NCBI GenBank assembly: GCA_947246015.1
Contig: CAMXQE010000007.1
Coordinates: forward strand, 16,171 to 80,170
Direction: 5' to 3'
Length of the DNA: 64,000 bases
From: an uncultured Lachnospiraceae bacterium
GTDB taxonomy: Bacteria; Bacillota; Clostridia; Lachnospirales; Lachnospiraceae
Positions 36,816 to 54,272 of the stretch are shown piece after piece. The position numbers were made by a program, and so were the translations under genes. Under the pieces are notes generated by a model. The model did not search any database and was not told where the DNA came from. It worked only from the letters and a program-made list of their open reading frames with translations. Numbering within the stretch: position 1 is the first letter of the stretch; every line of letters starts with the position of its first letter.

Positions 36816-36891
36816 GAAGGAAAATGAAAAGAAAAAGAATATCCCGTGGAAGAGCAGGTACTGAAAAGCACCGGATTCCACAGGATATTTT

Positions 36892-36983
36892 TATTCCCGC
36901 GAGCAACGAGCCAAGTGTCTGCAACATTTGGCGACTGCCGCGAGGGTCAAATACCCCGTTGCTCTGCAGCGGGGTATTTGATT
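36892..36983 (+). repeat. Palindromic intergenic repeat family, copy G (short form)
   Basis: TATTCCCGCGAGCAACGAGCC...GTCAAATACCCCGTTGCTCTGCAGCGGGGTATTTGATT. Confidence 0.9.
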
Positions 36984-36994
36984 TTGGAAAAAAC

Positions 36995-37052
36995 GGCAAC
37001 TGCGTTGAAAAAAAGAACTATATGAAAAGTAGGAAGAGCTCAGAGAAAGGAG
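36995..37052 (+). promoter_or_regulatory. Conserved promoter-like motif, copy 1 (upstream of nrdG)
   Basis: GGCAACTG-N12-GAACTATAT-N3-AAGTAGGA.GAGC-N5-GAAAGGAG; 43/58 ungapped identity with 40343-40400. Confidence 0.7.
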
Positions 37053-37099
37053 GTGCACTTATCAGGGAAGAGAATGTAGTCTGATAACGGAAAGGAGGG

Positions 37100-37582
37100 T
37101 TGGGCATGAATCATACAATAGAATGTGCGGGCTGGCTGGAGAACAGTTGTGATGACGGACCGGGAATGAGAAGCGTCCTGTTTTTACAGGGGTGCAGTAA
37201 GAATTGTAGCGGATGTCATAATTCGGGAATTAAGGAACATGGAAAAGGAACAGAGATGGAAATTGATGCATTAATCAATTTTATTGAGTCAAAATGCTGC
37301 AACGGAAAGATTACAATTTCAGGAGGTGAGCCGTTAGAGCAGATGGACAGCCTGGCTGTACTGCTGGAGAAGCTGAAGGTCAAAGGATATAATATCTGCG
37401 TATATACAGGATGGGAATTGGAAAAAGTGCCGGAAAAGATTTTAAAACTGGTGGATTATATAAAAACAGGCAGTTTTATCATTAATTTGAGGAACTCTTA
37501 TATGCAATATGCCGGTTCGTCAAATCAACATATGTTTGCTGTTAATAATGGTAAGATCAAAGAGATGAGCTTACTTGCATAG
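37100..37582 (+). CDS. nrdG: Anaerobic RNR activating radical-SAM enzyme (ATG alternative at 37106)
   Basis: DGPGMRSVLFLQGCSKNCSGCHN (CxxxCxxC), ISGGEP, YTGW, GSSNQ. Confidence 0.9.
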   Translation: MGMNHTIECAGWLENSCDDGPGMRSVLFLQGCSKNCSGCHNSGIKEHGKGTEMEIDALINFIESKCCNGKITISGGEPLEQMDSLAVLLEKLKVKGYNICVYTGWELEKVPEKILKLVDYIKTGSFIINLRNSYMQYAGSSNQHMFAVNNGKIKEMSLLA

Positions 37583-37593
37583 CATGGAAAGGA

Positions 37594-39276
37594 ATGGTAA
37601 TGATTATGAGTATGGACAGAGCAACAGACCTGGCAAATAGAAAAAGGAATACAGCGGGTGTGGTTTCAGAAGACGGTCAGAGATATAGAAAAAAGTATAT
37701 ATTGAATCATATAGTGCCTGAAAAAAATGCAGAAAAGCATAATAGCCGGATGTGTCATATCCATGATTTGGAATGTTACGATATTACATATAACTGTATA
37801 GGGATATCTGTAAAGGATTTGGTTGGGAACAAGAGCAGAAGCTTCCGTAATATGCTCCGGGCTTTGTACAGAGCTATTGTGGAACTGGCAAATATCCAGT
37901 CAGGAGGAATTGGTTTCATAAATTTTGATTCTGATATTGCGTTATATATCGGAAATGAGAGTGATGCAGAAATTGTGGAAGCTCTTCATGAGTTGTTTCT
38001 GGATCTTAATACAAGTACAAGAAAAGGCTGTGAGAATCCATATGTAACGCTGAACTTCGGGCTGGATACAAGTGTTAACGGACGCAGGGCCGGCTTTTTA
38101 TTACTTGATGCATACGAAAAGGGGGATGAAAGGGGGAATCCGTTTATATTTCCCAACCTGGTATTTAAGATGAAGAGTGGGACTAATTTGGAAAGAAATA
38201 CAGCAAACTATGATTTGTATTGCAGGGCATTAAGTGTGACGGCAAAAAGAATGGTGCCGACCTACTTTAACTGTGACAGTATCAGCAATGCAGAATATAT
38301 TGCGGAAACAATCGGGATTATGGGATGCAGGACAAGAGTGGCTTCCAACGTAAATGGGAAAGAGGGGGTGCTGAACAGGGGAAATGTTGCATGTGTGACC
38401 CTGAATTTGGTTCAGATGGCATATCAGGCAAGAGGCGATATGGATGTTTTCTATTCTATATTAGATGAAAATCTGGAAGATGCAAAAGAAGTACTGTTGC
38501 ATAGGCTCAGCATTTTATGTGAGCGGGGGTTGTTTGGGGAATATTATGATAAAAGATATTATCAGGGAGCAGAAAAAAAGGACGTATATGAAATGTTGAA
38601 AAATGGGACGCTTGCTATCGGTTTTATTGGTCTTTGGGATGCCATAGGAACATTAATGGGATGTGAAATAGATTCTGCGGATATTATGAATCAGCATTTC
38701 GATACTGCCTATGGAGTCATCAGTCATATGAGGGATTATACGGATAAGGCAGCAAAGAAGGAACATTTGAATATATCGCTGCTTGCGACAGCGGCGGAAG
38801 GTGTCACAGGGAATTTCGCTCAGTATGACAGCTTAAATCTTGGGAAAGATTTTACAGCATGTAAAAAAGGGTTTTATACAAATTCCTTCCATGTTCCTGT
38901 TAATCTGCATATCAATTACAAAGATAAAATTCAGTTGGAGGGAAAATTTCACAGATTGTGCAATGGCGGCTCCATTACTTATGTTGAGTTAAAAGAGATG
39001 CCCGGAAACAATGTGGAGGCTGTCAGGGAAGTCGTGGAATATGCGTATCATAATGATTGTAATTATATTGGCATTAATTTCCCGATGGATAACTGTATGG
39101 AATGCGGCTGTACAGGAAGGATTATTGGTCAGTGCCCATGCTGTAAATCTGATAAAATCAGAAGATTGAGGAGGGTATCAGGATATCTTTCAGAAGAAAA
39201 CAGCTTTACGCCAGGAAAGAGAAAAGAACTGGGTGAGAGAACTTGCCATATGACAGTGAACTTTACAGGGGAATAA
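37594..39276 (+). CDS. nrdD: Class III (anaerobic) ribonucleoside-triphosphate reductase without ATP-cone
   Basis: HIHDL, YNC, QSGG, FPNLVF, MGCRT, YTNSFH, CMECG..CPCC zinc site, RVSGY glycyl-radical loop. Confidence 0.88.
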   Translation: MVMIMSMDRATDLANRKRNTAGVVSEDGQRYRKKYILNHIVPEKNAEKHNSRMCHIHDLECYDITYNCIGISVKDLVGNKSRSFRNMLRALYRAIVELANIQSGGIGFINFDSDIALYIGNESDAEIVEALHELFLDLNTSTRKGCENPYVTLNFGLDTSVNGRRAGFLLLDAYEKGDERGNPFIFPNLVFKMKSGTNLERNTANYDLYCRALSVTAKRMVPTYFNCDSISNAEYIAETIGIMGCRTRVASNVNGKEGVLNRGNVACVTLNLVQMAYQARGDMDVFYSILDENLEDAKEVLLHRLSILCERGLFGEYYDKRYYQGAEKKDVYEMLKNGTLAIGFIGLWDAIGTLMGCEIDSADIMNQHFDTAYGVISHMRDYTDKAAKKEHLNISLLATAAEGVTGNFAQYDSLNLGKDFTACKKGFYTNSFHVPVNLHINYKDKIQLEGKFHRLCNGGSITYVELKEMPGNNVEAVREVVEYAYHNDCNYIGINFPMDNCMECGCTGRIIGQCPCCKSDKIRRLRRVSGYLSEENSFTPGKRKELGERTCHMTVNFTGE

Positions 39277-39301
39277 GCAGGAGGAAAGGAGGATGATTCA
39301 G

Positions 39302-39417
39302 ATTACTGCTCACGGATTATGCCGCTTCGTTAAGTGTCACAGTACTTTGATGCTTTGCGGGGTGACGCCGTAAGCAGTAATTTATGGAATCTATGGAATC
39401 TATGGAATCTATGGAAC
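39302..39417. repeat. 80-bp hairpin element followed by a 9-bp tandem repeat
   Basis: ATTACTGCTCACGG...CCGTAAGCAGTAAT (13/14 inverted match), then (TATGGAATC)x3 plus a partial copy. Confidence 0.65.
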
Positions 39418-39430
39418 ATGGAAATTTTTG

Positions 39431-39594
39431 TTGAAAAGATTGTATGGATTTGATATAATAAAACTCATAAATATGAACAAATTGTTAACAAGACATTTTT
39501 GGGGTGAAAAAAGGTAATTGTCAGAATATTCTGTGAATTACACGTAAAAATGGGTCTTGGAACGCACTGTTTATGGGGCTTTTCAAGCCGTACC
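39431..39594 (+). promoter_or_regulatory. CRISPR leader 1 with sigma-A promoter
   Basis: TTGAAA-17-TATAAT with extended TG (39431-39459); AT-rich; highly similar to leader 2. Confidence 0.85.
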
Positions 39595-39930
39595 GTAGAA
39601 ATGAAGGAAGCCCGTATGAGGGCATTGAAACAAGACTCCTTCCAGTTAATAGGAGCTACTTCTGTTGGGTAGAAATGAAGGAAGCCCGTATGAGGGCATT
39701 GAAACACTCCTAGCGTCAACGATAACCGACTTATCACTGGTCGGTAGAAATGAAGGAAGCCCGTATGAGGGCATTGAAACACAGTAACATTATGCTGTAC
39801 CACAACAGGTTCTTCATTGGTAGAAATGAAGGAAGCCCATATGAGGGCATTGAAACAGTGTAAATCTTCCAGTTGTACCCGAATAATTCGGGAGTAGAAA
39901 TGAAGGAAGCCCGCCAAAGGGCATTAGTTA
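39595..39930 (+). CRISPR. CRISPR array 1: 5 repeats (37 bp), 4 spacers (37, 38, 39, 37 nt)
   Basis: GTAGAAATGAAGGAAGCCCGTATGAGGGCATTGAAAC at 39595, 39669, 39744, 39820 (1 SNP) and a degenerate copy at 39894; GCCC/GGGC stem and ATTGAAAC 3' handle. Confidence 0.97.
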
Positions 39931-40342
39931 TAAATTACAAAATTCTTAGGAATAGGATTTTATTTGTCTTGCATGGTTTGTCTGTTATATGCCTGGTTAC
40001 ATTTGAATCAAAACAAGTTGGTGAGGATATATCTTCCTGAACCGTTTCTGTGTCTGTTTGAGCGGCTTTGTTATGATAAGGCATATATGTCTGCTGTAAT
40101 ATCAAAGAGAACAGATAGGCTATTTATTCCATGATGGTTCGCATTGAGAACGATATGCCGGTGCAGACTAAAAATCCGGAAAGTATTTTCCACCGATAAA
40201 TATTCTGTTTTTATTTTAGGCTCTTTATGGCTGCTGCCATGAGGGGCTTTTTGCGTTGGCTTTATCTGAGCATAGTCACAGGAAAACAGTGTATGGAAAG
40301 ATGTTTTGCTAAAAAATTTTTTTAAAATTTTTTTAGATAATT

Positions 40343-40400
40343 GGCAACTGACGAAAAAAAAGGAACTGTATAGTAAGTAGGAGGAGCGAATGGAAAGGAG
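40343..40400 (+). promoter_or_regulatory. Conserved promoter-like motif, copy 2
   Basis: GGCAACTG-N12-GAACTGTAT-N3-AAGTAGGA.GAGC-N5-GAAAGGAG. Confidence 0.7.
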
Positions 40401-40467
40401 CGCACCTGATGAGAGGAAACGGTAAAAATGGATGAAAAACAAAATGAAAGTCAGGAGGCAGTTATTT

Positions 40468-41283
40468 ATGGAAAATAAAAAAAATTATGGAACAGATGTT
40501 GCAGCGGCAAGAAAAATATATGAAACAAAGGTTGGATTGGAAGCGTTTGAAAGGGCCGGAAATAATCCGCAGTTAAAAGGCATTGTACATGAAGTATTGT
40601 ATAAAGATGCGCAGACGGTTAATCCGGTTAATTTATTCAATGGTACAAAAGGAGTATTGTCGAAATCGACAACCGCAGTAAGAGATGATGTATTGCTGAT
40701 GAATGGAGGAAAGGTACTTGGAAGAAGCCAGTTAAAAGATACCGCCGGTTCCATTTCCAAGACGGTAAAACAGGCTGCCGATGGAAAATATGCCGGAACC
40801 AGGCTGATGGGGACAAATGAAACGGTTCAGGCATATGAGAAAGCAGTGGAAAAATTGTCTGCGAAAGGAATATCTGTTTCGCAGAAAATGACTTCTACCG
40901 GTATTTCATCAGCAGATACAAGCAGAATCGCTGTAGAAACGATAGGAGGAAAGCTGGCGGCTAAATCGCTGGCAAAGGTGGCGGGAAGTTCCGGTGTGGC
41001 AGGCGGTGTGATTTCCGGAGGAATAGAGACTGTCTGTGCAGGGATGGATTTACTTGAGGGGAATATTGATGGCGGAGAATTTGCCGGCAGAGTGGCAAAA
41101 GAAACGATTGGAGGAGGAATTTCGGCAGCAGGGGGAAGCGTGGCGGCAACGGCAGTGTCTGCGTGTACGGCATCTGTTTTGGCAGCAACAGCGGCTCCGG
41201 TTTGGGTTCCGGCGGCAGTCGGTATCGGTGCGGCCGTTGTAGTAGGTTCTCTTATAAAAGATATTTGGGATGCAGTCTTTTGA
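40468..41283 (+). CDS. Hypothetical protein with Gly/Ala-rich hydrophobic C-terminus (ORF open from 40432)
   Basis: RBS AGGAGG before ATG 40468; E..D..QLK pattern in the N-half; GxxxG glycine-zipper helices and terminal TM APVWVPAAVGIGAAVVVGSLI. Confidence 0.75.
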   Translation: MENKKNYGTDVAAARKIYETKVGLEAFERAGNNPQLKGIVHEVLYKDAQTVNPVNLFNGTKGVLSKSTTAVRDDVLLMNGGKVLGRSQLKDTAGSISKTVKQAADGKYAGTRLMGTNETVQAYEKAVEKLSAKGISVSQKMTSTGISSADTSRIAVETIGGKLAAKSLAKVAGSSGVAGGVISGGIETVCAGMDLLEGNIDGGEFAGRVAKETIGGGISAAGGSVAATAVSACTASVLAATAAPVWVPAAVGIGAAVVVGSLIKDIWDAVF

Positions 41284-41395
41284 AAGACAGAATATGCAAT
41301 ATCGTATTGGGGGATTTGTGGTATAATATGGGAAAAAGAGGATAATTCAACATTATGATTGTTACCAAGCAGGAAAGCATGGAGAAAGGAAAATT

Positions 41396-43309
41396 GTGGA
41401 CACACAGGATAAAAATTATCTGTTATTTGTTCCCAGCCGTTTGACAGCCAATCCGAAATCAATTTGCTATAAAGTGGAAGGGAGGGAAACAGAATATGCC
41501 GGGATGCAGACGAATGAAGCTGTTACCAAATATCTGGTAGATTATTTGTATGAAAAAGGCGGGAAGCTGGATAAGATTATCATGTTGTGTACGGAAGAAG
41601 TGCAATATGAGGGGCTTCCTGTGATAGAAGGGCGTACTACGCTGGAATATTATAAGGATGCCATATGCGGATTTCTTGCCGGGGATGAAAAATACAGTGA
41701 GGACTATTCTGATACAGAGGCATTGTTTGAAATAGTGCCATATTCAGCTTCAGATTATGATGTAAGCGAGATTAAGAAGCCTTTGGATGAAGTGCTTAAG
41801 ATTACAGAGAACAAAGAAAAGGCTTTTAGTGAACATCTGTATGTGGATTTTACCGGAGGACCGAGAAGCGCTGCTTTGACACTGATATTCACCTGCAGGA
41901 TGCTTCAGCTAAATGAAGTTGCAGTGGAAAAGATTCTATACAGCAACATTCATACAGAAGGGCAGAAACTGGCCGGAAAGATAGAGGAATGCACAAAGGT
42001 CTATAATGTTTTTGCCATTTTGGAGGCAAAGGAAGCGCTTGTGCATGGAGACAGAAGTAAAATGCTGGAGTATGCAGAGAAATCGGGCGATGAAGATATG
42101 AAAAAAACTTTTCAGGAGTATGATGAAATCTCTGCGAAAAGGGAAATGGCAAACCAGACCAATCAATTGGCAGATGTAATTCTGGAATCGCAGGGGGTTA
42201 TTGCCTCAGCGGATAAGATTGCCAATTTGGAGAATCATCTGGCAGCAGAGCTGTTTTCAAAAGGAATCGAGAATCAGGTAAAAGACAGCAGGAATATCGT
42301 TGAAAACCCCAGATATCATAAGCTGACGTATATCGAAGAACATTTGAAAAAAAAGAGATATGATAAAGTAATCAGTTTTTTTCGTGAAAATATCATGGAA
42401 AGTCTGATTGAGTTTCAAATCATAAAAGGGGGATGGAACAGGGAACTGAATAAAAAGGTGGTGGTAAATGAACTGATGGGAGTTTACTGCTATTATGAGA
42501 CACCTGAAAGCAGTAAATCCGATAAAAAAAACAAGGATGCAAAAAGGACTTTTATGGATGCGGTACGGGATTATATAAAATTGCTTAATGAATATCCGGA
42601 CAGAGACCCATATGATGTTTTGAAGGAAAGGAACCAGTGGTTCTATGATATACGCGAACATATGGACTGGACATCTGAACGGGGGTTTACGCATAATGGC
42701 AAAAGCAGGCGCATTTGCAATGAGAAGCTGTTTCCTTATCTGGAAGCCGAAAACGGAACAGGTATGAAAGCAGGCGAACTGATAGAGAAGTATCAGAAAA
42801 TGGAGCAGGTTTATACAGGCTATGGATTTCCGTTCGCATGTACATATGGCAATACGTGGTTTTTTGACGCATATGAGGATTTATACAAAAAGAATATGAA
42901 CTGCGGTGCAAGAAGTCTGCAGAAATATTTTCAGCACACTGCAGACGGCAGGATGCAAAAAGCGCTTGCATGTTTTCCAAAGGAAAGATTTACGTATGAA
43001 ACACTGATTCAGGCGCTGCAAAAGGAACAGTATCAGAAAATGCTATATGTTCTTTTCCCGTTTGAGTTAAATAAAAGAAGCATTTGTTCCGATGTGATGA
43101 CAGAAGAAAAATGGGAAGAATTTATTTATGATTTTGTACGCTCATTTTATAATGTGAAACAGGTAAGGAACGGACTTGCCCATGGAGGCAGTCTGAAGGG
43201 GGATGATGTGGAGAGAGCCGTCAGGACGGTAGAAAGGGTACTCTGTCAGATAAGGGAAATGGAAAATGAAAAGCCTGCTGCAGGTATAAAAACAAAGGGG
43301 AGGAGGTGA
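41396..43309 (+). CDS. CARF-HEPN ancillary ribonuclease (Csx1/Csm6-like, TM1812-type CARF)
   Basis: CARF motif YVDFTGGPRS; C-terminal HEPN RNGLAH (RxxxxH); extended -10 TGGTATAAT upstream. Confidence 0.82.
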   Translation: MDTQDKNYLLFVPSRLTANPKSICYKVEGRETEYAGMQTNEAVTKYLVDYLYEKGGKLDKIIMLCTEEVQYEGLPVIEGRTTLEYYKDAICGFLAGDEKYSEDYSDTEALFEIVPYSASDYDVSEIKKPLDEVLKITENKEKAFSEHLYVDFTGGPRSAALTLIFTCRMLQLNEVAVEKILYSNIHTEGQKLAGKIEECTKVYNVFAILEAKEALVHGDRSKMLEYAEKSGDEDMKKTFQEYDEISAKREMANQTNQLADVILESQGVIASADKIANLENHLAAELFSKGIENQVKDSRNIVENPRYHKLTYIEEHLKKKRYDKVISFFRENIMESLIEFQIIKGGWNRELNKKVVVNELMGVYCYYETPESSKSDKKNKDAKRTFMDAVRDYIKLLNEYPDRDPYDVLKERNQWFYDIREHMDWTSERGFTHNGKSRRICNEKLFPYLEAENGTGMKAGELIEKYQKMEQVYTGYGFPFACTYGNTWFFDAYEDLYKKNMNCGARSLQKYFQHTADGRMQKALACFPKERFTYETLIQALQKEQYQKMLYVLFPFELNKRSICSDVMTEEKWEEFIYDFVRSFYNVKQVRNGLAHGGSLKGDDVERAVRTVERVLCQIREMENEKPAAGIKTKGRR

Positions 43310-43315
43310 AGCCGG

Positions 43316-43675
43316 ATAAAAAAATATTTTATAAATTTTACAAATCATCCATCTGTCAAATGGGAAGAAAAGCAGAGAATGGCAGCATTGGAATACGGAG
43401 AGATTATTGATGTTCCTTTTCCAACGGTAGACCCGCAGGGAGATGAGGGTTATATTGAAGGATTGGCAGAACGTTATCTGCGGCGGATTTTACAGCTTCA
43501 TCCGTATGTGGTTTTATGTCAGGGAGAATTTTGTCTGGCATACCGGATAATAACAAAACTGCATGAAAGCGGGATTATGGTTTTGGCGGCATGCAGTGAG
43601 CGCGTTGTGAAAGAGGCCGGACAGAAAAAAGAGGTAATGTTTGCATTTTCGCAGTTCCGCAGATACTGCAGGTGA
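43316..43675 (+). CDS. Small CRISPR-associated CARF-fold protein, ring-nuclease-like (Csx20/Csx15-type)
   Basis: FINFTNHPS..W...Q..AA..YGEIIDVPFP.VDP...QGEF...SER...F..FRRY; the conserved N-terminus lies upstream of the first ATG (43379). Confidence 0.65.
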   Translation: MKKYFINFTNHPSVKWEEKQRMAALEYGEIIDVPFPTVDPQGDEGYIEGLAERYLRRILQLHPYVVLCQGEFCLAYRIITKLHESGIMVLAACSERVVKEAGQKKEVMFAFSQFRRYCR

Positions 43676-43719
43676 ATGTTGGAAAAGGAAGAAGAAGCCT
43701 TAAAACGGAGGGATAAAAC

Positions 43720-44655
43720 TTGGAGGCGGATATGCAGAGATTAGGACAGGCATTGCGGATTCGGTATGTGAAGCTGCATTTTAAGGTACAATTTTGGAAA
43801 GCATCCAGACTTCCGGTGAACAAAGTGTCAGCAATCCGGGGTGGAATCGGAGAAATGCTGCTGCGGGCCAATTGTATCCGGGACCGGAATTGTGTAAGCT
43901 GTGATTTTGAGCAGGAATGTATTGTAAGAAGAACGATGTATTCCAAATTTGACAAAAAGCCGGCTTTTGTGACTACTGGTGACAGTGCCGGATATGTGCT
44001 GGAATGTGAAAACTATGAAGAATTTTTTGATGCCGGGGATATCCTGGAATTTCAACTTATTTTGTTTGGCAAGACGATTGTATATTTCAGCCAGTTTCTG
44101 CAGGCTGTTTATCAGCTTGGCAGTGCGGGCATTGGGAAGGAACATGCCATGTATCATTTGGTATCGGTTCGAAATACCACAGGAAAGGAAATTTTGGACG
44201 GAGAACATATTCTGATGGAACGTTATGAGATACAGACAATAGAAGATTATGTCAGATACCGTCTGCAGCAGAATGTCCGGTGGGAGAACCGGATTCGTTT
44301 TAAGACTCCCGTGACCCTGAAATATCAGGGGAAAATGCAGGAGACCCTGAATTTGGAGGCGGTTGCTGCAGCAGTATTCCGCAGGCTTTATATTCTGGAC
44401 TGTTTTGAGGGACTGGATTGCGGGGAGTTATGCTGGCAGGGAGAATATCCGGAGGTTTTGAAAGAAGAATCTAAAAGAGTATCGGTTTGCCGGTATTCCG
44501 GCACGCAGAATCAGAAAATGGCGTTGCAGGGTATAAAGGGAGATATGCAGCTGTCAGGGCTTCCGCAGGAGCTGCTGCAGGTTCTGCTGGCAGGTGAAAT
44601 TATGCATATAGGAAAGAATACAAGTTTTGGATTCGGAAGATACCATGTATGGTAA
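43720..44655 (+). CDS. cas6: Cas6 crRNA-processing endoribonuclease
   Basis: C-terminal G-loop HIGKNTSFGFGRY; RF.TP motif; N-terminal C..C..C..C zinc site. Confidence 0.92.
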   Translation: MEADMQRLGQALRIRYVKLHFKVQFWKASRLPVNKVSAIRGGIGEMLLRANCIRDRNCVSCDFEQECIVRRTMYSKFDKKPAFVTTGDSAGYVLECENYEEFFDAGDILEFQLILFGKTIVYFSQFLQAVYQLGSAGIGKEHAMYHLVSVRNTTGKEILDGEHILMERYEIQTIEDYVRYRLQQNVRWENRIRFKTPVTLKYQGKMQETLNLEAVAAAVFRRLYILDCFEGLDCGELCWQGEYPEVLKEESKRVSVCRYSGTQNQKMALQGIKGDMQLSGLPQELLQVLLAGEIMHIGKNTSFGFGRYHVW

Positions 44656-44679
44656 GGCAGGGAAAACGAGGGTGCGGAA

Positions 44680-46254
44680 ATGGAAGGAGGAAATATTTTG
44701 AAAGACGAGAGAGTTCTGGCGATGTATGATGTGAGGGGAAAGCAGGAGTATATTTACCGGAGCAGGAAGATTCAGGAGATTATAGGAGCGTCCTGTATAA
44801 TCAGGGATGTATTTGAGGATTATCTGTATCCGGCTGCCCGGCAGGTTCGGAATAAAGAAAAGGATATGGGGGATAAAGAGGCAGTATACCGGTACGGACC
44901 GAAAACGGCAGAGGCTTTTTCCACGGAAGCCTTTGAACAGCGTATGCAGGAAGGATGTTATATAGGGGAGGTGGTTTATGACGGTGGTGGGAACTTTCTG
45001 ATTTTGTACAGGGACAGGGAGACATGTATCAGGGTGAACCGGCTTTTTACAAAGAGCCTGATGGAACATACCGGTACACTGAAGGTATTATGCACGATTT
45101 TGGAACATCCTGATTTTATGCGGTACCAGGAGGATAATCGTAGATTATATGAGCAGCATCGGAGGAATGAAGCGACAGAGAGTGTGATTCATCCGGTGAA
45201 CAATCTGCCGGTGGTTCAGGTTGACCCTCGTACTTCGAGACCCTTATCAGTAAAACGCATAACTGCAGGAGCTGGCGGGGACGGCAGGAAAAAGATGTCT
45301 TTGGAATGCGCTGCAAAGTACGATAAATATCGGGAGGAGGAGAGGCGCGGAGAGGCAGCGGAGGAAAAGATTTTAGACAGGATTGTGGAAAAGAGGGGGG
45401 AAGAAAGCCTGTTGGCCGTGATATATATAGACGGCAATAACATGGGGGCGCAGGTACAGAAGTGTCTGGAAGGAAAGGAAAGTTATGAAGAATGCGTCAC
45501 GGAGCTTAGAAGATTCTCAGGTGAAATCCAAAAAAACTATGTGGATGACCGGATGGAGGCCATCAATGCCATGCTGGACGGGAAATATAAAGATGAGAGA
45601 GATGAGGACGGGAAGAGCAGGCCTGGTAAAAAGCGGCGGACGATTGTAGCGGCAGGGGATGAAATGGCAATCATCTGCAATGCCCGGGATGCTTTGGATG
45701 TAGTGAAGGCATATTTCAGAGACTTTCCGGAGAAATGCAGTTCCTGTGTGGGAATTGCAGTCTTTCACAGTCATGCACCTTATGCGGACGCATACCGGCT
45801 GGCCGAAGAATGTTGTGAATCCGGGAAAGCATGGATGAAGAAAAAGGGTTTAAACCATGCGTGTCTGTTAGATTTTCATTATTGCCAGGGCGGAATCGGA
45901 ATTTCGTTGGAAGGGATTCGGAAGAAAGAACTGCCTGAGAAAGAATGCAGCAGGCCATGGATGATGCTTTCCCACTCAAAGGACAGGGAGGAAGGATTCT
46001 GCTATTCTTTGGAACTGGCAGAGGAGATGGCAGCTCTCCTGCGGCGTCTAGGCCGGAGTAATGTGAAATCACTTTTAAGTGCAGCATTAAACAGCCCGGC
46101 AGATTTGGAAATGGAGTTGGAAAGGATTAATGCACATAGAACGGAACCTGAGGATTTTACATTAGGCGGGAAGCTGGATGAGGAGCGGAAAAGAAAGTTG
46201 ATTTACGATATCGTTCTGGTTTATGATTTATGGTTTCGGGAAGAGGAGGTGTAA
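44680..46254 (+). CDS. cas10: Cas10 (type III-D, no HD domain)
   Basis: DVRGKQEYIY, YDGGGN (Palm1), YIDGNNMG and AAGDE (Palm2), AP...AYRLAEECCESGK. Confidence 0.9.
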   Translation: MEGGNILKDERVLAMYDVRGKQEYIYRSRKIQEIIGASCIIRDVFEDYLYPAARQVRNKEKDMGDKEAVYRYGPKTAEAFSTEAFEQRMQEGCYIGEVVYDGGGNFLILYRDRETCIRVNRLFTKSLMEHTGTLKVLCTILEHPDFMRYQEDNRRLYEQHRRNEATESVIHPVNNLPVVQVDPRTSRPLSVKRITAGAGGDGRKKMSLECAAKYDKYREEERRGEAAEEKILDRIVEKRGEESLLAVIYIDGNNMGAQVQKCLEGKESYEECVTELRRFSGEIQKNYVDDRMEAINAMLDGKYKDERDEDGKSRPGKKRRTIVAAGDEMAIICNARDALDVVKAYFRDFPEKCSSCVGIAVFHSHAPYADAYRLAEECCESGKAWMKKKGLNHACLLDFHYCQGGIGISLEGIRKKELPEKECSRPWMMLSHSKDREEGFCYSLELAEEMAALLRRLGRSNVKSLLSAALNSPADLEMELERINAHRTEPEDFTLGGKLDEERKRKLIYDIVLVYDLWFREEEV

Positions 46255-46255
46255 A

Positions 46256-48520
46256 ATGGGAATTTTATATGGTAGGTTAAAAATTGAACTTATGTCAGAC
46301 CTTTGCGCAGGGTCCGGTTATTCTTACGCAGGAGTAATTGATTCTGATGTATCTTATGATGAGTACGGACTTCCTTATATACCGGCCCGCCGCCTGAAAG
46401 GCTGTATGAGGGAAGCAGCGGAACTGGTTTGTCCTGATATGACGGAAAAGCTGTTCGGTAAGCCGGGAGATGATGGGACAAAAGGGATAGTTCTGTGGAA
46501 TGCCTATATAGAAGAGTACGATTCGGTGACGGAAGAACTTGGGAAACTGCATCATGAAGCGTACAGGGAGGCGGCTTACCTGTCACAGCAGAATATACTG
46601 AAGCTGTATACAGGTATCAGGGCGCAGACAAAATTGTGTCCGGAGACGGGAACTGCACAGCAGAATACTCTGAGATATACCAGGGTAGTGGGACAATATA
46701 ATCCGTTGAAAGAGAAGGTTCCTCTTTGCTTTTATGCAAAGCTGGAAATTCCTGATATTTATAAAGAAGTATTGGAACGGATTGTTAAAGCGGTAAGAAA
46801 TATCGGAATGAACCGGAACCGGGGATTAGGAAGTGTGCGCTGTAGTCTGAGTAATTTAAGAATAGCAGAAGAACCGGAACTGAGGACGGGTAAAAGGACA
46901 GAAGGGGAAGAAAGAGTCTGTCTTACTTATGTTCTTTGCAACAGGGAACCTTTGTTGATGAGCAGTGATAATGTAGAAGTTTCGGATTCTTATATCAGTG
47001 GAAAGAGTGTCCTCGGAAAACTGGCGGGAGCTTATCTTCGCGGGGAAGGGAGAAGTGCGGAAGGAGAGGAATTCAGGCAATTGTTTTTGGACGGAAATAC
47101 TCTTTTTACCAATGCATATCCGACCATTCTGCCCGAAAAGGGCAGGGAATTGGCAGCACAGTGGCCGGATTATGCTCCGGCGCCGCTTTATCTGAACCGG
47201 TTGAAAAAAACAGGCGTTTTGGTAAATCTGCTTGGAGAAAATAAGGAGATTCCACAGGGCAGAAGAGACATATATGATACAGGAGGAGGAAATCTGCCGA
47301 AAAAACTGAAAACACACTATGTTTATGAGAGCAGCCCTAATATGTATGATGTGATAGAGCCGCAGCGGGAGATTCTTTACCATAACAGTAAACGGGAACT
47401 TTTGTATTCACTGGAGGCAGTAAAAGAAGGACAGTATTTTAAAGGGCAGATTTATACCAGCCGGAAATATGCAAATCTGCTTAGGGGGCTGTTAGAACAT
47501 ACGCATCTTTCTTTTGGAAAGTCCAAGACAGCCCAGTATGGGATTTGTGAGCTGGCAGCCGGGATAACGGCGGAGACTGTCGAAGAAGAGACAATCTGTG
47601 CAGAAGAGGGCGAACGGATAGCAGTTGTTATGGATAGCGATGCGGTATTCATACATGGAGCTGACGGATATACCATAAAATTTGAGGAGATAAAAGAGCT
47701 GGTCGGAGGGCAGCTGGGGATTCCCTATGATAAAGAAGCAGATGAAAACAGTATGCTTCAGACAAAGGAAATAACGGGCTATAATACGAAATGGAATCTG
47801 CGAAGACCCGGAATGCCTGCGGTGAAGGCAGGCAGTGTACTGGTATATACCATACCGGCCGGACAAAGCTGGCAGAAGAACATATGGCCGGGGCGGACAT
47901 TTGTAGGAGAGAGGAATCTGGAGGGATATGGGCAGGTACGGATTGTAAAGTGCCGTGATATGTCTTATGCTGCGGAAAGCACGAGAGCGGAAAGAACGGG
48001 AGCAGAGCAGGATAAGCAGGCGGAGTGTCTGCATTTTCATAGCTGCATGTCCTTTCTTCTGCAGATTTTGACAGAACAGCTTTTGGAGCGTTTGGTTTTT
48101 CTATATACAGGGAGAGGAACAGAACTGAATCTGACGGCATCTACGGTAGGAAGGCTGAGTCTGATGCTTCAGGAAAGCCTGAATGAGTACAGAGGTGATG
48201 CAGAGAAAGCTTTTAAAGATTTTTGCAGCCGGGTGGAATCTATAAAAAGGAAGAAAGAGAAGGAAGAAGCATTCCGCTTGCTGTATTCCGTTTTGCTGAA
48301 GGAGAGAGGGGAAGAAAAGAGGGAGGCGGAAGGAGAGTACAGGCTGGATATTCAGAAAATGACTGAAGATAAAGGCGATTGGAAGCTGAAAGAAATAGGG
48401 AGTCTCTTAAAATTGTATTCTACTGAGGAGGAATACAGAGAAAGGCTGACAGATATATGGGGTGTGTACATGGAGAATATACTTACCTTTCATAAATATC
48501 TGAAAAAACATGAAGGCTGA
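46256..48520 (+). CDS. RAMP fusion Cas7-Cas5(Csx10)-Cas11-like
   Basis: G-loops IGMNRNRGLG, FGKSKTAQYG and VGERNLEGYG; PYIPARRLKG; helical C-terminal ~170 aa. Confidence 0.82.
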   Translation: MGILYGRLKIELMSDLCAGSGYSYAGVIDSDVSYDEYGLPYIPARRLKGCMREAAELVCPDMTEKLFGKPGDDGTKGIVLWNAYIEEYDSVTEELGKLHHEAYREAAYLSQQNILKLYTGIRAQTKLCPETGTAQQNTLRYTRVVGQYNPLKEKVPLCFYAKLEIPDIYKEVLERIVKAVRNIGMNRNRGLGSVRCSLSNLRIAEEPELRTGKRTEGEERVCLTYVLCNREPLLMSSDNVEVSDSYISGKSVLGKLAGAYLRGEGRSAEGEEFRQLFLDGNTLFTNAYPTILPEKGRELAAQWPDYAPAPLYLNRLKKTGVLVNLLGENKEIPQGRRDIYDTGGGNLPKKLKTHYVYESSPNMYDVIEPQREILYHNSKRELLYSLEAVKEGQYFKGQIYTSRKYANLLRGLLEHTHLSFGKSKTAQYGICELAAGITAETVEEETICAEEGERIAVVMDSDAVFIHGADGYTIKFEEIKELVGGQLGIPYDKEADENSMLQTKEITGYNTKWNLRRPGMPAVKAGSVLVYTIPAGQSWQKNIWPGRTFVGERNLEGYGQVRIVKCRDMSYAAESTRAERTGAEQDKQAECLHFHSCMSFLLQILTEQLLERLVFLYTGRGTELNLTASTVGRLSLMLQESLNEYRGDAEKAFKDFCSRVESIKRKKEKEEAFRLLYSVLLKERGEEKREAEGEYRLDIQKMTEDKGDWKLKEIGSLLKLYSTEEEYRERLTDIWGVYMENILTFHKYLKKHEG

Positions 48521-48584
48521 CAGGGTATTTTAGAAACATCCGCCGGAACCGTGCGGAAAGGAAGAATGGAAACAGGAGAGATAT

Positions 48585-49871
48585 ATGCGGAATAATACAG
48601 GGAAAAAAATATATTATCGGATAGTTTTTCAGACTGCATCTGCCCTGTCGGCAGGCAGTGGGGAAAACCGGTATTCAGACAGTGATTTCATAAGGAATTC
48701 AGTGGGAGAGCCTTTCATTCCGGGCAGCTCACTGGCAGGTATTTACCGTTCTTTTTTTACTGAGAATGATGCTGAGTATTACTTCGGGGCAGACAAAAAG
48801 GAAGAAAGAAAACAGGAAGAAGATGGGCCGGGGAGCAGGGTACTGGTGTATGATGCAAAGCTGCAGGATACAGAAGGAGGGATTCCTTACCGAAGGGTTA
48901 TCAGAGACTGTGTGGCACTGGATGAATGGAAAACAGGAAAGGATGGGCATAAGTTTGACTTTGAGACGGTTGAGCCGGGAGCTTGTTTTGTAACCTATTT
49001 AGAACAGAACTGCGGGCCGGGGGACAGAGATATTGGGAAAGAGCTGGCTGAGATTTGGAGAGAGCGCAGGATTTACATTGGCCGTAAGACGATGCGGGGT
49101 CTTGGAAGCATTGGAAAGGCTATGATTTACCGGCGGAGCTTTGATTTGACGGAGCAGTCGGAGCTGGATGCATGGCTTGACTTTGATATGTATCAGGAGA
49201 AGGACTGGACAGATGCAGAGTTTGAGGCAGAGGACAGACAGGAAACAGGACGGGGCAGGATGATTTCCATAGAGTTTAATCTAAAGCAGAAGGGAGGAAT
49301 TTCAATCCGCCGTTATACGACAAAGGTGACGACCGGAGTGATTCAGCCGGATGCAGAGCAGCTTACCTGTATTACCGGAAAGGATGGACAGGAAGTGCCG
49401 TATATTCCGGGGAGTTCCTGGGCAGGTGCGTTCCGCCATCATATGGAACGGTTAATTCCGGGATGTACGCGGGGATGTTTTGGGGATTGTGAAAAGCGTT
49501 CTGCCATTCGGTTTGGCGAAAGCTTTATCAGCGGGGCGTCCGCGAAGGTACTGACCAGAAATGCGGTGGACCGTTTTACCGGAGGAGTGATTGAGACGGC
49601 ATTATTTACTGAGAAAATGTGGTATGGAGGAACGACAGTGCTGCGCATAGAGCTTCCCGCAGAAGTGGATATGGAAGTATGGCAGGCACTGGCAGCTTCT
49701 TTGGCGGATTTGCATGCGGGGCTTCTTTCCGTAGGCGGTCTGACGGCTGTGGGAAGAGGTATTTTTGAAGGAGAGACTCTGTTTATTGACCATGAACCGG
49801 TTCTTCCGGGAGATGGGATGTATGAACGGATTTTAAAAAAGCTGGAGGAGATGCGTGTATGGAAAAAATAG
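48585..49871 (+). CDS. Tandem Cas7-Cas7 (Csm3-like) fusion
   Basis: Two RAMP units: PFIPGSSLAG/IGRKTMRGLG and PYIPGSSWAG/VGGLTAVGRG. Confidence 0.88.
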   Translation: MRNNTGKKIYYRIVFQTASALSAGSGENRYSDSDFIRNSVGEPFIPGSSLAGIYRSFFTENDAEYYFGADKKEERKQEEDGPGSRVLVYDAKLQDTEGGIPYRRVIRDCVALDEWKTGKDGHKFDFETVEPGACFVTYLEQNCGPGDRDIGKELAEIWRERRIYIGRKTMRGLGSIGKAMIYRRSFDLTEQSELDAWLDFDMYQEKDWTDAEFEAEDRQETGRGRMISIEFNLKQKGGISIRRYTTKVTTGVIQPDAEQLTCITGKDGQEVPYIPGSSWAGAFRHHMERLIPGCTRGCFGDCEKRSAIRFGESFISGASAKVLTRNAVDRFTGGVIETALFTEKMWYGGTTVLRIELPAEVDMEVWQALAASLADLHAGLLSVGGLTAVGRGIFEGETLFIDHEPVLPGDGMYERILKKLEEMRVWKK

Positions 49872-50389
49872 AGACAATGGAACAATTCTGGCAATGTGCA
49901 GATACGATGGCAGAAGGTTTCCTCTTTGCCATGTTTACAGATGAAATTGTGTGGGAGAGCTGGCCGTTAACTTCCGAAAAACGGGAAAATTTCCGGAAAA
50001 AGGAGGGGAAGCTTTTGGATGTGCGAATCTTTAATAAGGAAAAAGAGGTGCGCATGTTCCGCGGGGATATCGGAAGAAAGCTTCAGGGCAGAAGTATCGA
50101 TGACGGGAAGGATATACTGAAGCAGCAGGAGTATTTTGACGAGGAACAGTATCTGGATATTGACGATAAGCGTTCGGAAGAGGTATTTGCCAGAGAGAAA
50201 AAGGTAGTTGCCACCGGAGGCGGCTGTTATTCCCTGCCATTGCCGGGGTTCGTGGATGCAAAGGTAAGGCTCCGCAATTATCTTGGCTATTACGAAGAAA
50301 CAGGCCAGGTATATGTAAGGGACTGGCGGCTTATGGGGTTATTTCAGGAAAGGCCCGGGCAGGTGCAGAGCCAGAGGAGGAGAAAATGA
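49859..50389 (+). CDS. csx19: Csx19
   Basis: LLDVRIFN..KE, RNYLGYY..G..YV.DWRL.G; position between cas7 genes is typical of III-D. Confidence 0.8.
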   Translation: MEKIETMEQFWQCADTMAEGFLFAMFTDEIVWESWPLTSEKRENFRKKEGKLLDVRIFNKEKEVRMFRGDIGRKLQGRSIDDGKDILKQQEYFDEEQYLDIDDKRSEEVFAREKKVVATGGGCYSLPLPGFVDAKVRLRNYLGYYEETGQVYVRDWRLMGLFQERPGQVQSQRRRK

Positions 50390-52323
50390 AGGTAAATTAT
50401 AAAAGGAAGAAAGATGTAAAATTTGTCAATCCATATACATTTGTACCGGTTTCAAAAAAGGAACCTGTAAAGAGAAGTACGCTTGAACCGGCAGAATCCG
50501 GCAAGCTGCATACAGGAGTTCTCCGGTGCAGGCTTTATGTCCGGACGCCGCTTGGAATACCTGATGCGGAGCGGGAAAAAACGGATGGGAGCGGACATAA
50601 GAAATATCCCTTTTTTTCCTATGAGGAGAATGGAAAACCGGTTCCGGTAATTCCGGGAAGCTCTTTAAGGGGAAGCATTCGTTCTGTATTTGAAACAGCT
50701 GCGGATTCCTGCTTTTCGACACTACGGGAGAATACAGGGTTATCCAGGCGTGTGGACAACCGAAAGGCTTATAAGCCTGGAATCCTTAAATGGGAGAAGG
50801 AAGGCTGGCATCTTTATCAGGCGGAACGTTATCTGTTGGCAGTGAAACCGGAAGAGGATGACCGGAAGAGGAGCTATACAGAATATAGAGAACTGCCTGC
50901 GGATGCATATGTCCATATGATTCGGAGAGAAGATGGACGGAGAGCTGCCATGAACAGGGAGAGAGAAGAACTGCGGTTCGGAGATTTGGTGGAATTCCAG
51001 CCTTACACACAGGGGAACGGTGTTTATAAGAAAAACGGTTTTCAGGTTTGGAAAGGCGTTGCCAGAAGCGTGAGAAAGAAACAGGAGGGAACAGGGCATC
51101 CGGCAGGCAGGGAGTATGGGCTGGTCTATATAGGAGAGACTTTTGCGAAAAAAAAGCATGGGGAAAGTATCTTTGTGATGGGGAAGGAAGTAAAGGAATT
51201 GACGGCGGGACAGGTGAAAAAGGCATATGAGGGCTTGCTTGAGAGCCTGGAGATATACCGGAATCCTGCTGTAAACCGCAGTGAGGGACACAGTGGATAT
51301 AAGGATTTTGAACATGCGAAAAAGGAGAGAGGAATCCCGGTCTGGTATTCTGCGGAAGAAAAGAAGCTTTCACTGGCCTCAATAGGAAGGACTTTTTATA
51401 ACACCAGTCTGAATGAGCTGGCAGGAGAAAGAAAACCCTGCATAAACAGGAAAAAGCTTTGTGAAGCCTGTACTCTTTTTGGTATGGCAGGAGAAGAAAG
51501 TCTGGGAAGCAGGATTCGGATTACGGATGCAAAGGCTCAGGAAGGGTATCAGTTAAGATGGGAGACATTAAAAATACTGGGACAGCCCCGTTATTCTTAT
51601 CTGCCCTTTTATGCCAAATCTGCTTCGGGCATTCCGAATTCTTATGATGACCCAATGGTTGAGATAGCGGGAAGAAAATTTTACTGGCATAACATGGAAG
51701 CGGCAAAGGACAGCAGGATTTATGCGGCTGGGGAGAAAAATCAAATGAATAATACGCTGGAGCTTGTGATGCCGGGGGCGGAATTTTCTTTCGAAGTCTA
51801 TTATGACGGTATTACGCAGGAACAGCTTCAGAAGCTTATGTGGTGTATTCATTTCGGAGAAAATAAAAAGGATGGGAATCTGTGCGGCAGGCTTGGTCAT
51901 GGGAAGCCGCTCGGGCTTGGAAGCGTCAAAATGGTGATAGAAGAAAAGGAAGAGAGAATTTTTGAGGAAGGAGTTTACAGATGGGAACGGGAAGTATCGC
52001 TTGGGGAAGGGGCAGAGCCTGAATTAAAAAATAAGAAGGAATTAAAGCGGGTGATGGATTTCCGCGGGCCGGGTGGAAAAATACCGATTCAATATCCATA
52101 TATCTGTGATGAATATGGAAAGGAGCTTTCGGAGTCCGGTAAGAATGAGAATGCAAGGCATGTGTGGTATTTGAAGAACAAAGAGTCCAAAAGGGAAAAA
52201 GATGACCCTTCAGAGCTTTTGCCTGATATTATGGCAAAAAATCAGACACTGCATCCTTATCAGAAGATGCAGGGGAACAGTCAATACAATAATTATGGCA
52301 ACAATGGATTAAAAAGGAGATAG
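50386..52323 (+). CDS. Cas7 with large insertion (TIGR03986-like RAMP)
   Basis: FVNPYTFVP, IPGSSLRGSIRSVFE, LCEACTLFG, GRKFYWH, LGHGKPLGLGS. Confidence 0.9.
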   Translation: MKVNYKRKKDVKFVNPYTFVPVSKKEPVKRSTLEPAESGKLHTGVLRCRLYVRTPLGIPDAEREKTDGSGHKKYPFFSYEENGKPVPVIPGSSLRGSIRSVFETAADSCFSTLRENTGLSRRVDNRKAYKPGILKWEKEGWHLYQAERYLLAVKPEEDDRKRSYTEYRELPADAYVHMIRREDGRRAAMNREREELRFGDLVEFQPYTQGNGVYKKNGFQVWKGVARSVRKKQEGTGHPAGREYGLVYIGETFAKKKHGESIFVMGKEVKELTAGQVKKAYEGLLESLEIYRNPAVNRSEGHSGYKDFEHAKKERGIPVWYSAEEKKLSLASIGRTFYNTSLNELAGERKPCINRKKLCEACTLFGMAGEESLGSRIRITDAKAQEGYQLRWETLKILGQPRYSYLPFYAKSASGIPNSYDDPMVEIAGRKFYWHNMEAAKDSRIYAAGEKNQMNNTLELVMPGAEFSFEVYYDGITQEQLQKLMWCIHFGENKKDGNLCGRLGHGKPLGLGSVKMVIEEKEERIFEEGVYRWEREVSLGEGAEPELKNKKELKRVMDFRGPGGKIPIQYPYICDEYGKELSESGKNENARHVWYLKNKESKREKDDPSELLPDIMAKNQTLHPYQKMQGNSQYNNYGNNGLKRR

Positions 52324-52326
52324 TTT

Positions 52327-52932
52327 ATGAAAAAGATGTATATTACGAATGTTTCTCTTCAGGGAAAGGGTGAACTGCTGAAGTTTCTGTATGAACCGAA
52401 CGGTTTTGAAATGAAAAATAACCGGGAGACCAGTTTCCCAATCATACCGGTGATTGCATCCCGGCAGGAGAAAGGGGATGAGATTAAGGTGCTGGCGATT
52501 CGGTCCAATCATGCGGACACGCCGGATAACTATGCAGTATTTCTGCAGGAACTGAGTACACTCGGAATTTCGGAAGAACAGGTAAAAGAGATAAATATAG
52601 CGGAAAACCAAAGCAGTTCAGAGAGCCTGAAGTTGTTGATGACAGTGCTGGAAGAAATTCCGGAGAAATCTTTGGTCTATGGGGACATTACTTACGGAAC
52701 AAAGCCTATGGCGGCAATTTTGCTGTATGCAATGAGTTTTGCGGAGAAAATGAGAAATTGTGAGGTGGACGGAATCTATTATGGGGAAATCCGGAGAGAG
52801 GATAAAAAAGTAACGGGAGCATTGCTCTATGATTTAACAGTGCTAAAACTGTTAGGCGATTTAATTGATGAGATGAAGGATATGGGAATCCGTGGAATGA
52901 GGGAAGTGATTCATGGATTGATAGGGGAGTAA
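52327..52932 (+). CDS. Stand-alone CARF protein (TM1812 family)
   Basis: VYGDITYGTKP CARF motif, FPIIPVI, IYYG, LYDLT; no effector domain. Confidence 0.8.
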   Translation: MKKMYITNVSLQGKGELLKFLYEPNGFEMKNNRETSFPIIPVIASRQEKGDEIKVLAIRSNHADTPDNYAVFLQELSTLGISEEQVKEINIAENQSSSESLKLLMTVLEEIPEKSLVYGDITYGTKPMAAILLYAMSFAEKMRNCEVDGIYYGEIRREDKKVTGALLYDLTVLKLLGDLIDEMKDMGIRGMREVIHGLIGE

Positions 52933-52947
52933 GACGGAGGATAAGCG

Positions 52948-54141: not shown

Positions 54142-54161
54142 TTTCAGAAAAGTTTATGCAA

Positions 54162-54192
54162 TCAGAACCATCCGTTGGACGGGTGGTTCTGA
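54162..54192 (+). terminator. Stem-loop after the cas operon
   Basis: TCAGAACCATCCGT-TGG-ACGGGTGGTTCTGA; no strong T-tract. Confidence 0.5.
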
Positions 54193-54272
54193 AGATGAAA
54201 AAGAGATGAAAAATTATAGTCGGGACGGAGTGGGAATTCATGTGTTTGATATGTTTATGTGGTAAATTAATA

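Follow-up and report, generated by a model that had tools for sequence, protein, structure and literature searches.

We analysed a 64,000-nucleotide stretch of DNA from an uncultured Lachnospiraceae bacterium, a gut-type anaerobe (contig CAMXQE010000007.1 of assembly GCA_947246015.1; this whole stretch is called the window below) that carries, side by side, the genes of an anaerobic, class III ribonucleotide reductase (RNR) and a type III-D CRISPR (clustered regularly interspaced short palindromic repeats) locus. The reductase genes, nrdG and nrdD (together nrdGD), have relatives that turn up repeatedly in anti-phage loci, type III CRISPR among them; gene context thus suggests that control of nucleotide pools may be part of the immune response. 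The two genes lie at the following positions.

37106 to 37582, plus strand: nrdG, radical S-adenosylmethionine (radical-SAM) activase, 158 aa
37594 to 39276, plus strand: nrdD, class III, formate-type ribonucleoside-triphosphate reductase, 560 aa, without an ATP-cone

For nrdG, the ATG at 37106 is the likely start, in preference to the listed TTG at 37100. Residues 14-552 of NrdD match positions 3-562 of the PF13597 (NRDD) profile (E 9e-119, 398 bits, cut-off 26.2), and the protein also exceeds the cut-off of TIGR02487 (361.4 bits, cut-off 326.35). NrdG matches Fer4_12 in Pfam (E 2e-24), its top NCBIfam model is TIGR02491 NrdG with a score below the cut-off of that model, and its cluster motif reads C30-x3-C34-x2-C37. 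An nrdG homologue stands directly 5' of nrdD in all 18 of the 18 loci compared. The PADLOC catalogue (2023) holds no model that matches NrdD, and NrdG gives marginal pVip matches (E ~1e-3).

The top solved relatives of NrdD are the enzymes of P. copri (8P23, E 1.8e-53) and phage T4 (1H78, E 1.5e-45), and alignment locates the catalytic residues. N67-C68 lie on the first barrel strand, aligned with the N-C pair of T4, which we take to be N78-C79 in T4 numbering. The thiyl loop is M243-G244-C245, where C245 corresponds to C416 of P. copri and to the Cys of the T4 MGCR motif, and N264 corresponds to P. copri N435, at the position of the third Cys of thioredoxin-type enzymes. The zinc site consists of C501/C504/C514/C517, and the glycyl-radical motif is R527-V528-S529-G530-Y531, with Gly530 as the radical glycine. 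The catalytic Cys and Asn, the Met-Gly-Cys loop, the zinc Cys and RVSGY show no variation across 27 members of the clade of short NrdDs described below, at 49-92% identity, and ordinary reductase chemistry is thus under selection. Formate-type class III enzymes are recognised by an Asn in place of the third Cys on the sixth strand and a Met two residues before the thiyl Cys (PMC11226230), so that N264 and M243-G244-C245 assign the island enzyme to the formate-dependent subtype (NrdD1); the P. copri NrdD has the same Asn, with the thiyl loop MGCRTRV, as in the island NrdD (PMC11226230). Judged by these residues, nrdG and nrdD encode a complete, predicted working formate-dependent class III RNR.

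A scan with the ATP-cone family PF03477 gave no match in the island NrdD, in NrdG or in an upstream 86-aa open reading frame. The HIHD motif stands at residues 55-58, about 105 residues closer to the N-terminus than in the P. copri enzyme, whose N-terminal ATP-cone gives dATP inhibition and is the part that the island NrdD lacks. Owing to this absence, dATP is predicted to be unable to switch the island enzyme off. The cone is present in about 80% of class III RNRs and absent in about 20%, and the T4 and T. maritima NrdDs are cone-less (PMC11226230); enzymes of this cone-less type are thus already known, and the absence is not in itself unusual. These scans, together with the alignments to 8P23, 1H78 and the clade, bear out a first, sequence-only reading of this DNA, which had described a 560-aa NrdD without ATP-cone, starting almost immediately at HIHD and with its catalytic cysteines, zinc site and RVSGY motif intact. 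That reading had also proposed an accessory RNR tied to a CRISPR island, a link that stands and reaches beyond this genome; its view of the missing cone as an unusual feature does not stand, given that some 20% of these enzymes lack it (PMC11226230). The effect that it proposed, a skew of NTP/dNTP pools by the enzyme as effector or a restoration of dNTPs, is hypothetical.

The T4 NrdD/NrdG pair (1H78 family) offers a close enzymatic parallel: it is likewise cone-less, has a comparable length (605 aa), can be aligned from residue 33 onwards to the C-terminus and shares the formate-type active site, zinc ribbon and glycyl radical. However, the T4 and island NrdDs are only ~28% identical, our trees place T4-like NrdDs with the long forms, the gene order in the T4-like phage Aeh1 is nrdD-nrdG instead of nrdG-nrdD, and the T4 copy is a phage gene whereas the island copy resides in a chromosomal CRISPR island. 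The order nrdG-nrdD and a higher AT content than that of gltBD, both noted from the letters at the outset, were confirmed: GC is 39.4% for nrdG and 39.8% for nrdD, compared to 49.4% for gltB, 51.9% for gltD and 45.4% for the genome (39-40% for the pair versus 49-52% for gltBD).

Comparison with related genomes places nrdGD at the left end of an 18.9-kb island, ~36986-55878. In the nearest genus mate examined (G021; gltD 96% identical), no more than ~320 bp separate an anti-sigma gene from the C-terminal end of a downstream leucine-rich repeat (LRR) gene (residues 626-696), whereas the anti-sigma and LRR genes are 18.9 kb apart in the window; the insert-free site in G021 thus sets the borders. 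The island holds nrdGD, both CRISPR arrays, the cas genes, a CARF/sigma-like gene pair and a transposase fragment, as follows.

36948 to 36985, plus strand: hairpin and T-run, intrinsic terminator of the upstream extracytoplasmic function (ECF)-sigma/anti-sigma unit; left island border
36982 to 37052, plus strand: promoter-like/leader motif 5' of nrdG, GGCAACT..AAAAAAAGAACTATAT..AAGTAGGAAGAGC..GAAAGGAG
39379 to 39416: tandem AATCTATGG, four copies, in the stretch from the nrdD stop codon to the promoter of array 1
39431 to 39932, plus strand: leader and CRISPR array 1, with five repeats at 39588-39932
40330 to 40400, plus strand: second copy of the promoter-like motif, 5' of the 283-aa gene
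40432 to 41283, plus strand: 283-aa gene, no Pfam, NCBIfam or PADLOC match; a 90% identical homologue in the related locus L015
41396 to 52323, plus strand: type III-D cas operon (NCBIfam and PADLOC matches), comprising the next eight genes
41396 to 43309, plus strand: CARF-HEPN
43379 to 43675, plus strand: Csx20
43720 to 44655, plus strand: Cas6
44680 to 46254, plus strand: Cas10
46223 to 48520, plus strand: Csx10
48585 to 49871, plus strand: Csx7
49859 to 50389, plus strand: Csx19
50386 to 52323, plus strand: TIGR03986 RAMP
52327 to 52932, plus strand: small CARF-only protein, 201 aa (PADLOC CARF2--CARF, E 5e-57)
52948 to 54141, plus strand: sigma-70-like partner, 397 aa
54437 to 54618, plus strand: CRISPR array 2, of the same repeat family as array 1
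54837 to 55358, plus strand: transposase fragment, ISH6-like, right island end

The nrdGD pair abuts the leader of array 1, as first read: a sigma-A-type promoter-like site (39431-39459) begins ~155 nt past the nrdD stop. A terminator scan found no terminator-like site between nrdD and array 1, so that nrdGD transcripts may read through into the array. Upstream, the 86-aa frame (36824-37084) overlaps both the terminator hairpin and the promoter-like motif, has no family match and is probably not a gene. When window positions 24000-54141 are compared with L015 and P0272, the flanks are 96-98% identical (gltB 98%, gltD 96%) and the island genes 76-92% (NrdD 92%, Cas10 87%, CARF-HEPN 82%, the sigma-like gene 76%). 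In L015, the equivalent island lies directly 3' of gltD and its first array (L015:8757-9076), whose repeat differs at several positions, stands between gltD and nrdG, which puts nrdGD inside the CRISPR locus there.

The island copy is not the only nrdD of the genome. The assembly (G000; 3.93 Mb, 83.75% complete) holds three, the other two on contigs C17 and C23:

L001:1168-3666, minus strand: C17 nrdD, housekeeping-type, 832 aa
L003:513-3678, minus strand: C23 nrdD region, second ATP-cone NrdD

The C17 protein combines an ATP-cone, the NRDD domain and a C-terminal glutaredoxin-like tail, and its gene lies near NUDIX and pyrF-like genes. The C23 protein (728 aa) also has an ATP-cone, and its gene is followed by its own nrdG and then by a dUTPase/dCTP-deaminase-like gene. 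The third ATP-cone of the genome is in a 162-aa frame on C27, an NrdR candidate. A search of this 83.75% complete assembly for large subunits of class I or class II RNRs gave none. With two further ATP-cone nrdD genes and an NrdR candidate, the island copy is an extra one, and its NrdD is not the housekeeping enzyme of the cell; the accessory status claimed at first sight thus survives a search for a separate housekeeping nrdD. All ten of the other genomes with a short NrdD (10/10) likewise carry at least one long, high-scoring NrdD.

The island NrdD is rare among its relatives' genomes. Searches with it found no close homologue in a sample of 24 genus mates and none among 400 sampled genera of the family, and across ~27 genus mates the short form was not seen; the protein collection contains many relatives of 540-580 aa, with roughly 1,900 members of the clade and with named hosts among Lachnospiraceae (strain MA2020, Butyribacter, Lachnoanaerobaculum, Acetatifactor, Butyrivibrio), Eubacterium and Treponema. 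Trees were built with FastTree (123 rows) and with a quick IQ-TREE search (67 rows). In both, the short NrdDs form a single clade (support 99 and 100; SH-aLRT, the SH-like approximate likelihood ratio test, 100), within which a core clade (support 99) unites the island NrdD with all loci examined for context except L048, whose NrdD (P0116) falls just outside the core. A sister subclade contains the NrdD of the gut phage NatCom_17901. The C17 and C23 copies group among the long NrdDs, C23 with a T4-like phage enzyme. A phylogeny against phage and bacterial NrdDs, which the sequence-only reading had envisaged, therefore sets the island enzyme in a short clade of its own, with a phage member in the sister subclade. 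From this distribution, the short clade appears to be a rare, patchy, horizontally spread lineage that occurs only as an extra copy.

For the genomic context of the clade, contigs were picked by length alone, species genomes were added, and the neighbouring genes were clustered with BLAST and scanned for known families. Counting near-identical loci once left about 19 loci, 51-92% identical and partly related to each other. In eight of them, from Lachnospiraceae and Treponema hosts, a type III CRISPR-Cas system or a CARF pair lies inside the locus or within 10 kb; five stand beside Pkinase-STAND-TPR genes of ~1,400 aa, five in other defence-type or mobile contexts, and one has nothing suggestive nearby. 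The expected linkage of the clade to CRISPR and defence loci was thus recovered, with 8/~19 loci of the type III/CARF kind and most of the remainder defence-type. The individual contexts are:

Window/L015: type III-D context of nrdGD
L045: type III-D, in the order cas10..RAMP, nrdG, nrdD, CARF-HEPN
L040: RAMPs, Csx1, NT5C-like, kinase, nrdG, nrdD, LRAT, Csx20-like, cas1, cas2
L043/L028: Butyribacter, type III/CARF class
L033: T. saccharophilum, type III/CARF class
L027: III-A-like Cas10a
L029 and L030: CARF and partner directly beside nrdGD
L019, L024, L032, L034 and L048: Pkinase-STAND-TPR class
L022: strain MA2020, Cas13a
L036: three dynamin-like genes and a ZorA-like gene
L038: McrB-like and helicase-STAND genes
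L025: PIN-Hsp70 genes and an IS66 transposase
L044: integrative and conjugative element (ICE) with a LlaJI-type restriction enzyme
L031/L035: no suggestive neighbours

The type III loci tied to the clade vary in kind and arrangement, with III-D-like and III-A-like Cas10. The sole RAMP locus of the genome adjoins the short nrdD in this genome (G000), in T. saccharophilum (G041) and in a Treponema metagenome-assembled genome (G046); in Butyribacter (G042), the RAMP locus beside the short nrdD is one of two. The long NrdDs of the same genomes lie away from these loci, with one exception in Lachnoanaerobaculum sp. OBRC5-5, where the gene of an NrdD from a different lineage is flanked by cas1 and a CRISPR array of 19 repeats (L059:13481-17341, G043:C1). 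This 727-aa protein is 54% identical to the C23 type and has the thiyl loop PMCCR; no Pfam ATP-cone match was found in it and no nrdG lies adjacent. The first genes of this type III-D-like locus encode a CARF protein, an unknown protein of 432 aa and Cas10, and the arrangement is a second, independent tie of class III reductases to type III loci. The OBRC5-5 genome additionally carries a short nrdGD beside a Pkinase-STAND gene.

Other neighbourhoods have features of their own. In L040, nrdGD comes after genes for an NT5C-like deoxyribonucleotidase, an unknown protein of 423 aa and a Tmk-like/AAA_18 kinase (L040:6706-9451), by annotation a fuller deoxynucleotide module within a CRISPR locus. 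A Tmk-like gene is present in the STAND-class loci L019, L024, L034 and L048. In two of these (L019:11668-15954 and L024:11670-15917), a gene of 1415-1428 aa with Pkinase, NB-ARC-like and TPR parts begins on or inside the nrdD stop and is followed by the Tmk-like kinase; the overlap suggests translational coupling, and the kinase domain resembles the PD-T4-6 defence kinases. In L025:10076-19640, a PIN-Hsp70 fusion and two more Hsp70-like genes lie 3' of nrdGD with unknown genes interspersed, and an Hsp70-like gene is also found near nrdGD in L048. Our literature search, which covered few subscription journals, found no paper describing an association of NrdD or anaerobic RNR with type III CRISPR or defence.

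Within the island, a shared promoter-like motif links nrdGD to a second gene. The copies at 36982-37052 and 40330-40400 are 70% identical over 71 nt, both are retained in the 92%-related locus L015, and the composite motif occurs in the 3.93-Mb assembly at these two sites alone. The 283-aa gene, which shares the motif with nrdG, is thus probably co-regulated with it. The C17 copy is preceded by a pair of palindromes that resemble NrdR boxes, spaced 32 bp apart; in a soft test, no such site with <=4 mismatches was found in the 290 nt 5' of the island nrdG. A terminator on the 5' side, an island-private motif and the lack of detectable NrdR boxes show in part that nrdGD is likely a transcription unit of its own. 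No promoter motif common to distant loci was found. The Treponema-type loci have TGTCAAT-N14-16-ACTTC in common 5' of nrdG, which may reflect only relatedness, and the kinase-type loci L019, L024 and L034 have a TTACAAAyT-like element ~60-90 nt 5' of nrdG (CTATTACAAACTGG, CAATTACAAATTGG, CTCTTACAAACTCT).

A candidate for the upstream regulation is the CARF/sigma-like pair at the other end of the cas operon. Homologues of the 201-aa CARF protein adjoin short nrdGD in the Treponema loci L027, L029 and L030 and also in L045. The Treponema loci encode a 208-213-aa CARF protein (PADLOC CARF2--CARF, E ~1e-70) with a ~325-aa protein immediately after it, and in L045 the CARF gene is followed by a 310-aa gene. 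The CARF pair touches nrdGD in L029 (upstream) and L030 (downstream) and is 3 kb off in L027; no RAMP gene was found in the L029 and L030 assemblies. The 397-aa family and the ~325-aa Treponema partners are homologous (hhalign probability 95.5%, E 1.4e-8, 261 columns), and probabilities were low when single partner sequences from L059 and L045 were used for profile comparison. A motif like sigma-70 region 3.2 recurs in several partners, for example as VISMDVPLGTEDGNTGDTLG in the window protein and AISLDTPIDEDGELVLGDTIADEP in L045.

The 397-aa protein had no sequence match in Pfam or the Protein Data Bank (PDB), and profile comparison of its family with the window's own ECF sigma gave nothing. 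The AlphaFold2 model of the partner is poor, with a mean pLDDT (predicted local distance difference test) of 59.9. Among the best 50 Foldseek rows, ~40 are sigma chains with E 0.17-1.6, and none reaches E <= 0.001. By VIA-align (Z <= 5.7), the N-terminal part resembles sigma region 2 and the final 50 residues resemble sigma region 4 or a LuxR-type helix-turn-helix (HTH). With the motif and these weak structural matches taken together, the CARF partner is likely to be sigma-like, and the 397-aa protein is a candidate regulator of the motif-bearing units. A metagenome scan with the partner alignment returned four loci, of which only L055 is long enough.

From context and motifs, we consider that there is about an even chance that the island nrdGD is an immune-linked, feedback-insensitive RNR, probably induced upon infection. 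In type III systems, binding of target RNA causes Cas10 to make cyclic oligoadenylate. The island Cas10 would do the same, and the CARF protein with its sigma-like partner would then switch on the two motif-bearing units. Neither NrdD nor NrdG contains a CARF domain; as NrdD has no SAVED domain either, control would be transcriptional. Once induced, the reductase would turn ribonucleoside triphosphates (NTPs) into deoxyribonucleoside triphosphates (dNTPs) without overall feedback and so shift nucleotide pools during infection; possible outcomes include transcription starvation and dormancy, dNTP imbalance, or a supply for repair and recovery.

A more specific version of this reading is tentative, and we hold it to be possible without expecting it. 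Here the cone-less class III RNR would be a dedicated output of type III CRISPR: the CARF protein would sense cyclic oligoadenylate and free or activate the sigma-like partner, which would transcribe nrdGD and the 283-aa gene; the reductase would drain NTPs into dNTPs, or flood the cell with dATP and so shut down the ATP-cone reductases; growth or phage replication would halt; and the same cassette would serve as the effector for Ser/Thr-kinase STAND sensors.

Type III outputs that act through transcription or nucleotide pools include CalpL-CalpT-CalpS (protease, anti-sigma and sigma) and Cad1, a CARF-deaminase that converts ATP to ITP. The island resembles them in that it encodes Cas10 together with several CARF proteins, pairs a CARF sensor with a sigma-like gene and, in our proposal, has an NTP-acting enzyme as its output. 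However, no gene equivalent to the protease or anti-sigma of the Calp system was seen at the island, and Cad1 acts by deamination whereas the island enzyme acts by ribose reduction. In the dNTP-depleting defences, namely bacterial dCTP deaminase and dGTPase systems and SAMHD1, the deoxynucleotide pool is also the target, but these destroy dNTPs and the island enzyme makes them.

Several points weigh against an immune role. Extra dNTPs would on the face of it aid a DNA phage. That the CARF partner is sigma-like is deduced from a short motif and weak structural matches (Foldseek E >= 0.17; VIA Z <= 5.7), and the link between the 397-aa protein and the promoter-like motif is putative. In L055, a related III-D locus with the CARF/sigma-like pair, no nrdD was found in the readable 10 kb downstream. 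Eleven of the ~19 loci have no type III genes, one of them being an ICE, and the only notable neighbours of one locus are genes for an ATP-binding cassette (ABC) transporter and an HTH regulator. Because of their relatedness, the loci do not count as fully independent observations. Finally, the order nrdG-nrdD-tmk is also found in a phage, so that co-location in variable, element-rich regions may in part be hitch-hiking.

This last point leads to the best-surviving alternative, which we regard as somewhat unlikely: that the cone-less nrdG-nrdD(-tmk) cassette is nucleotide-supply cargo of phages or mobile elements that lands in defence hot spots and serves the element, or has no role at all, with no immune role. 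The gut phage NatCom_17901 (PV036423.1), the phage of the sister subclade, carries nrdG, a 564-aa cone-less nrdD and a thymidylate kinase gene in that order, with nrdG before nrdD as in the island, and its kinase is 38-41% identical to the Tmk-like proteins beside island nrdGD copies; however, no cas or CARF genes lie near the phage cassette, and the window island has no Tmk-like gene. One homologue belongs to an ICE that also encodes TraG, a topoisomerase and a restriction enzyme, several loci have transposases or group II introns close by, and the GC content of nrdGD is atypical for the genome, all as expected of cargo. Yet the closest known phage NrdD is only 36% identical to the island NrdD, and no IMG/VR viral contig carried the signature peptides of the clade, a scan with a few short peptide patterns that covers close clade members only. 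Moreover, the cassette is not merely near defence genes: in L015, L040 and L045 it sits between cas genes, arrays and adaptation genes, and in L029 and L030 it stays with the CARF pair even where RAMP genes were not found. The private promoter-like motif common to nrdGD and another island gene and the strict conservation of catalytic residues also count against this alternative.

An ordinary third RNR, kept as a back-up for some growth condition such as high dATP with the regulated enzymes off, would make the proximity to CRISPR meaningless. Several RNRs are common in bacteria, the enzyme is fully canonical and no class I or class II RNR came to light in the 83.75% complete assembly; but a lineage-wide physiological need is a poor fit to a gene not found in genus mates or in the 400 sampled genera, similar contexts recur in unrelated hosts, and no NrdR boxes were found, so that we think this explanation improbable. 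Still more doubtful is new chemistry, in which the glycyl-radical enzyme and a nearby nucleotide kinase would make a modified or chain-terminating nucleotide, as with the prokaryotic viperins, which are often kinase-paired. Tmk-like/AAA_18 kinases in L019, L022, L024, L027, L034, L040 and L048, the NT5C-like nucleotidase in L040 and the defence-type context would suit such a scheme, and the weak pVip matches of NrdG are what any radical-SAM protein might give; against it, all residues of ordinary reduction are invariant in the clade, including the formate-type Asn and the Met-Gly-Cys loop, and the phage counterpart is a plain dNTP-supply cassette. That the extra reductase is a guarded decoy, a bait for phage proteins whose tampering a STAND kinase or CARF module senses, recalls the stop-start overlap with the PD-T4-6-like kinase gene in L019 and L024 but is very improbable, since a bait would not need strict catalytic conservation.

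The nucleotide-based defences known so far either deplete dNTPs, NAD or ATP by destroying them or produce chain terminators. If the immune-linked reading of nrdGD is true, an immune locus with its own unregulated, dNTP-making radical enzyme would be a new use of nucleotide pools against phages, and a transcriptional, metabolic output would be added to type III CRISPR signalling. It would also offer a reason for the presence of three class III reductases in some anaerobes, and short NrdD genes in metagenomes should not automatically be read as housekeeping or phage markers.

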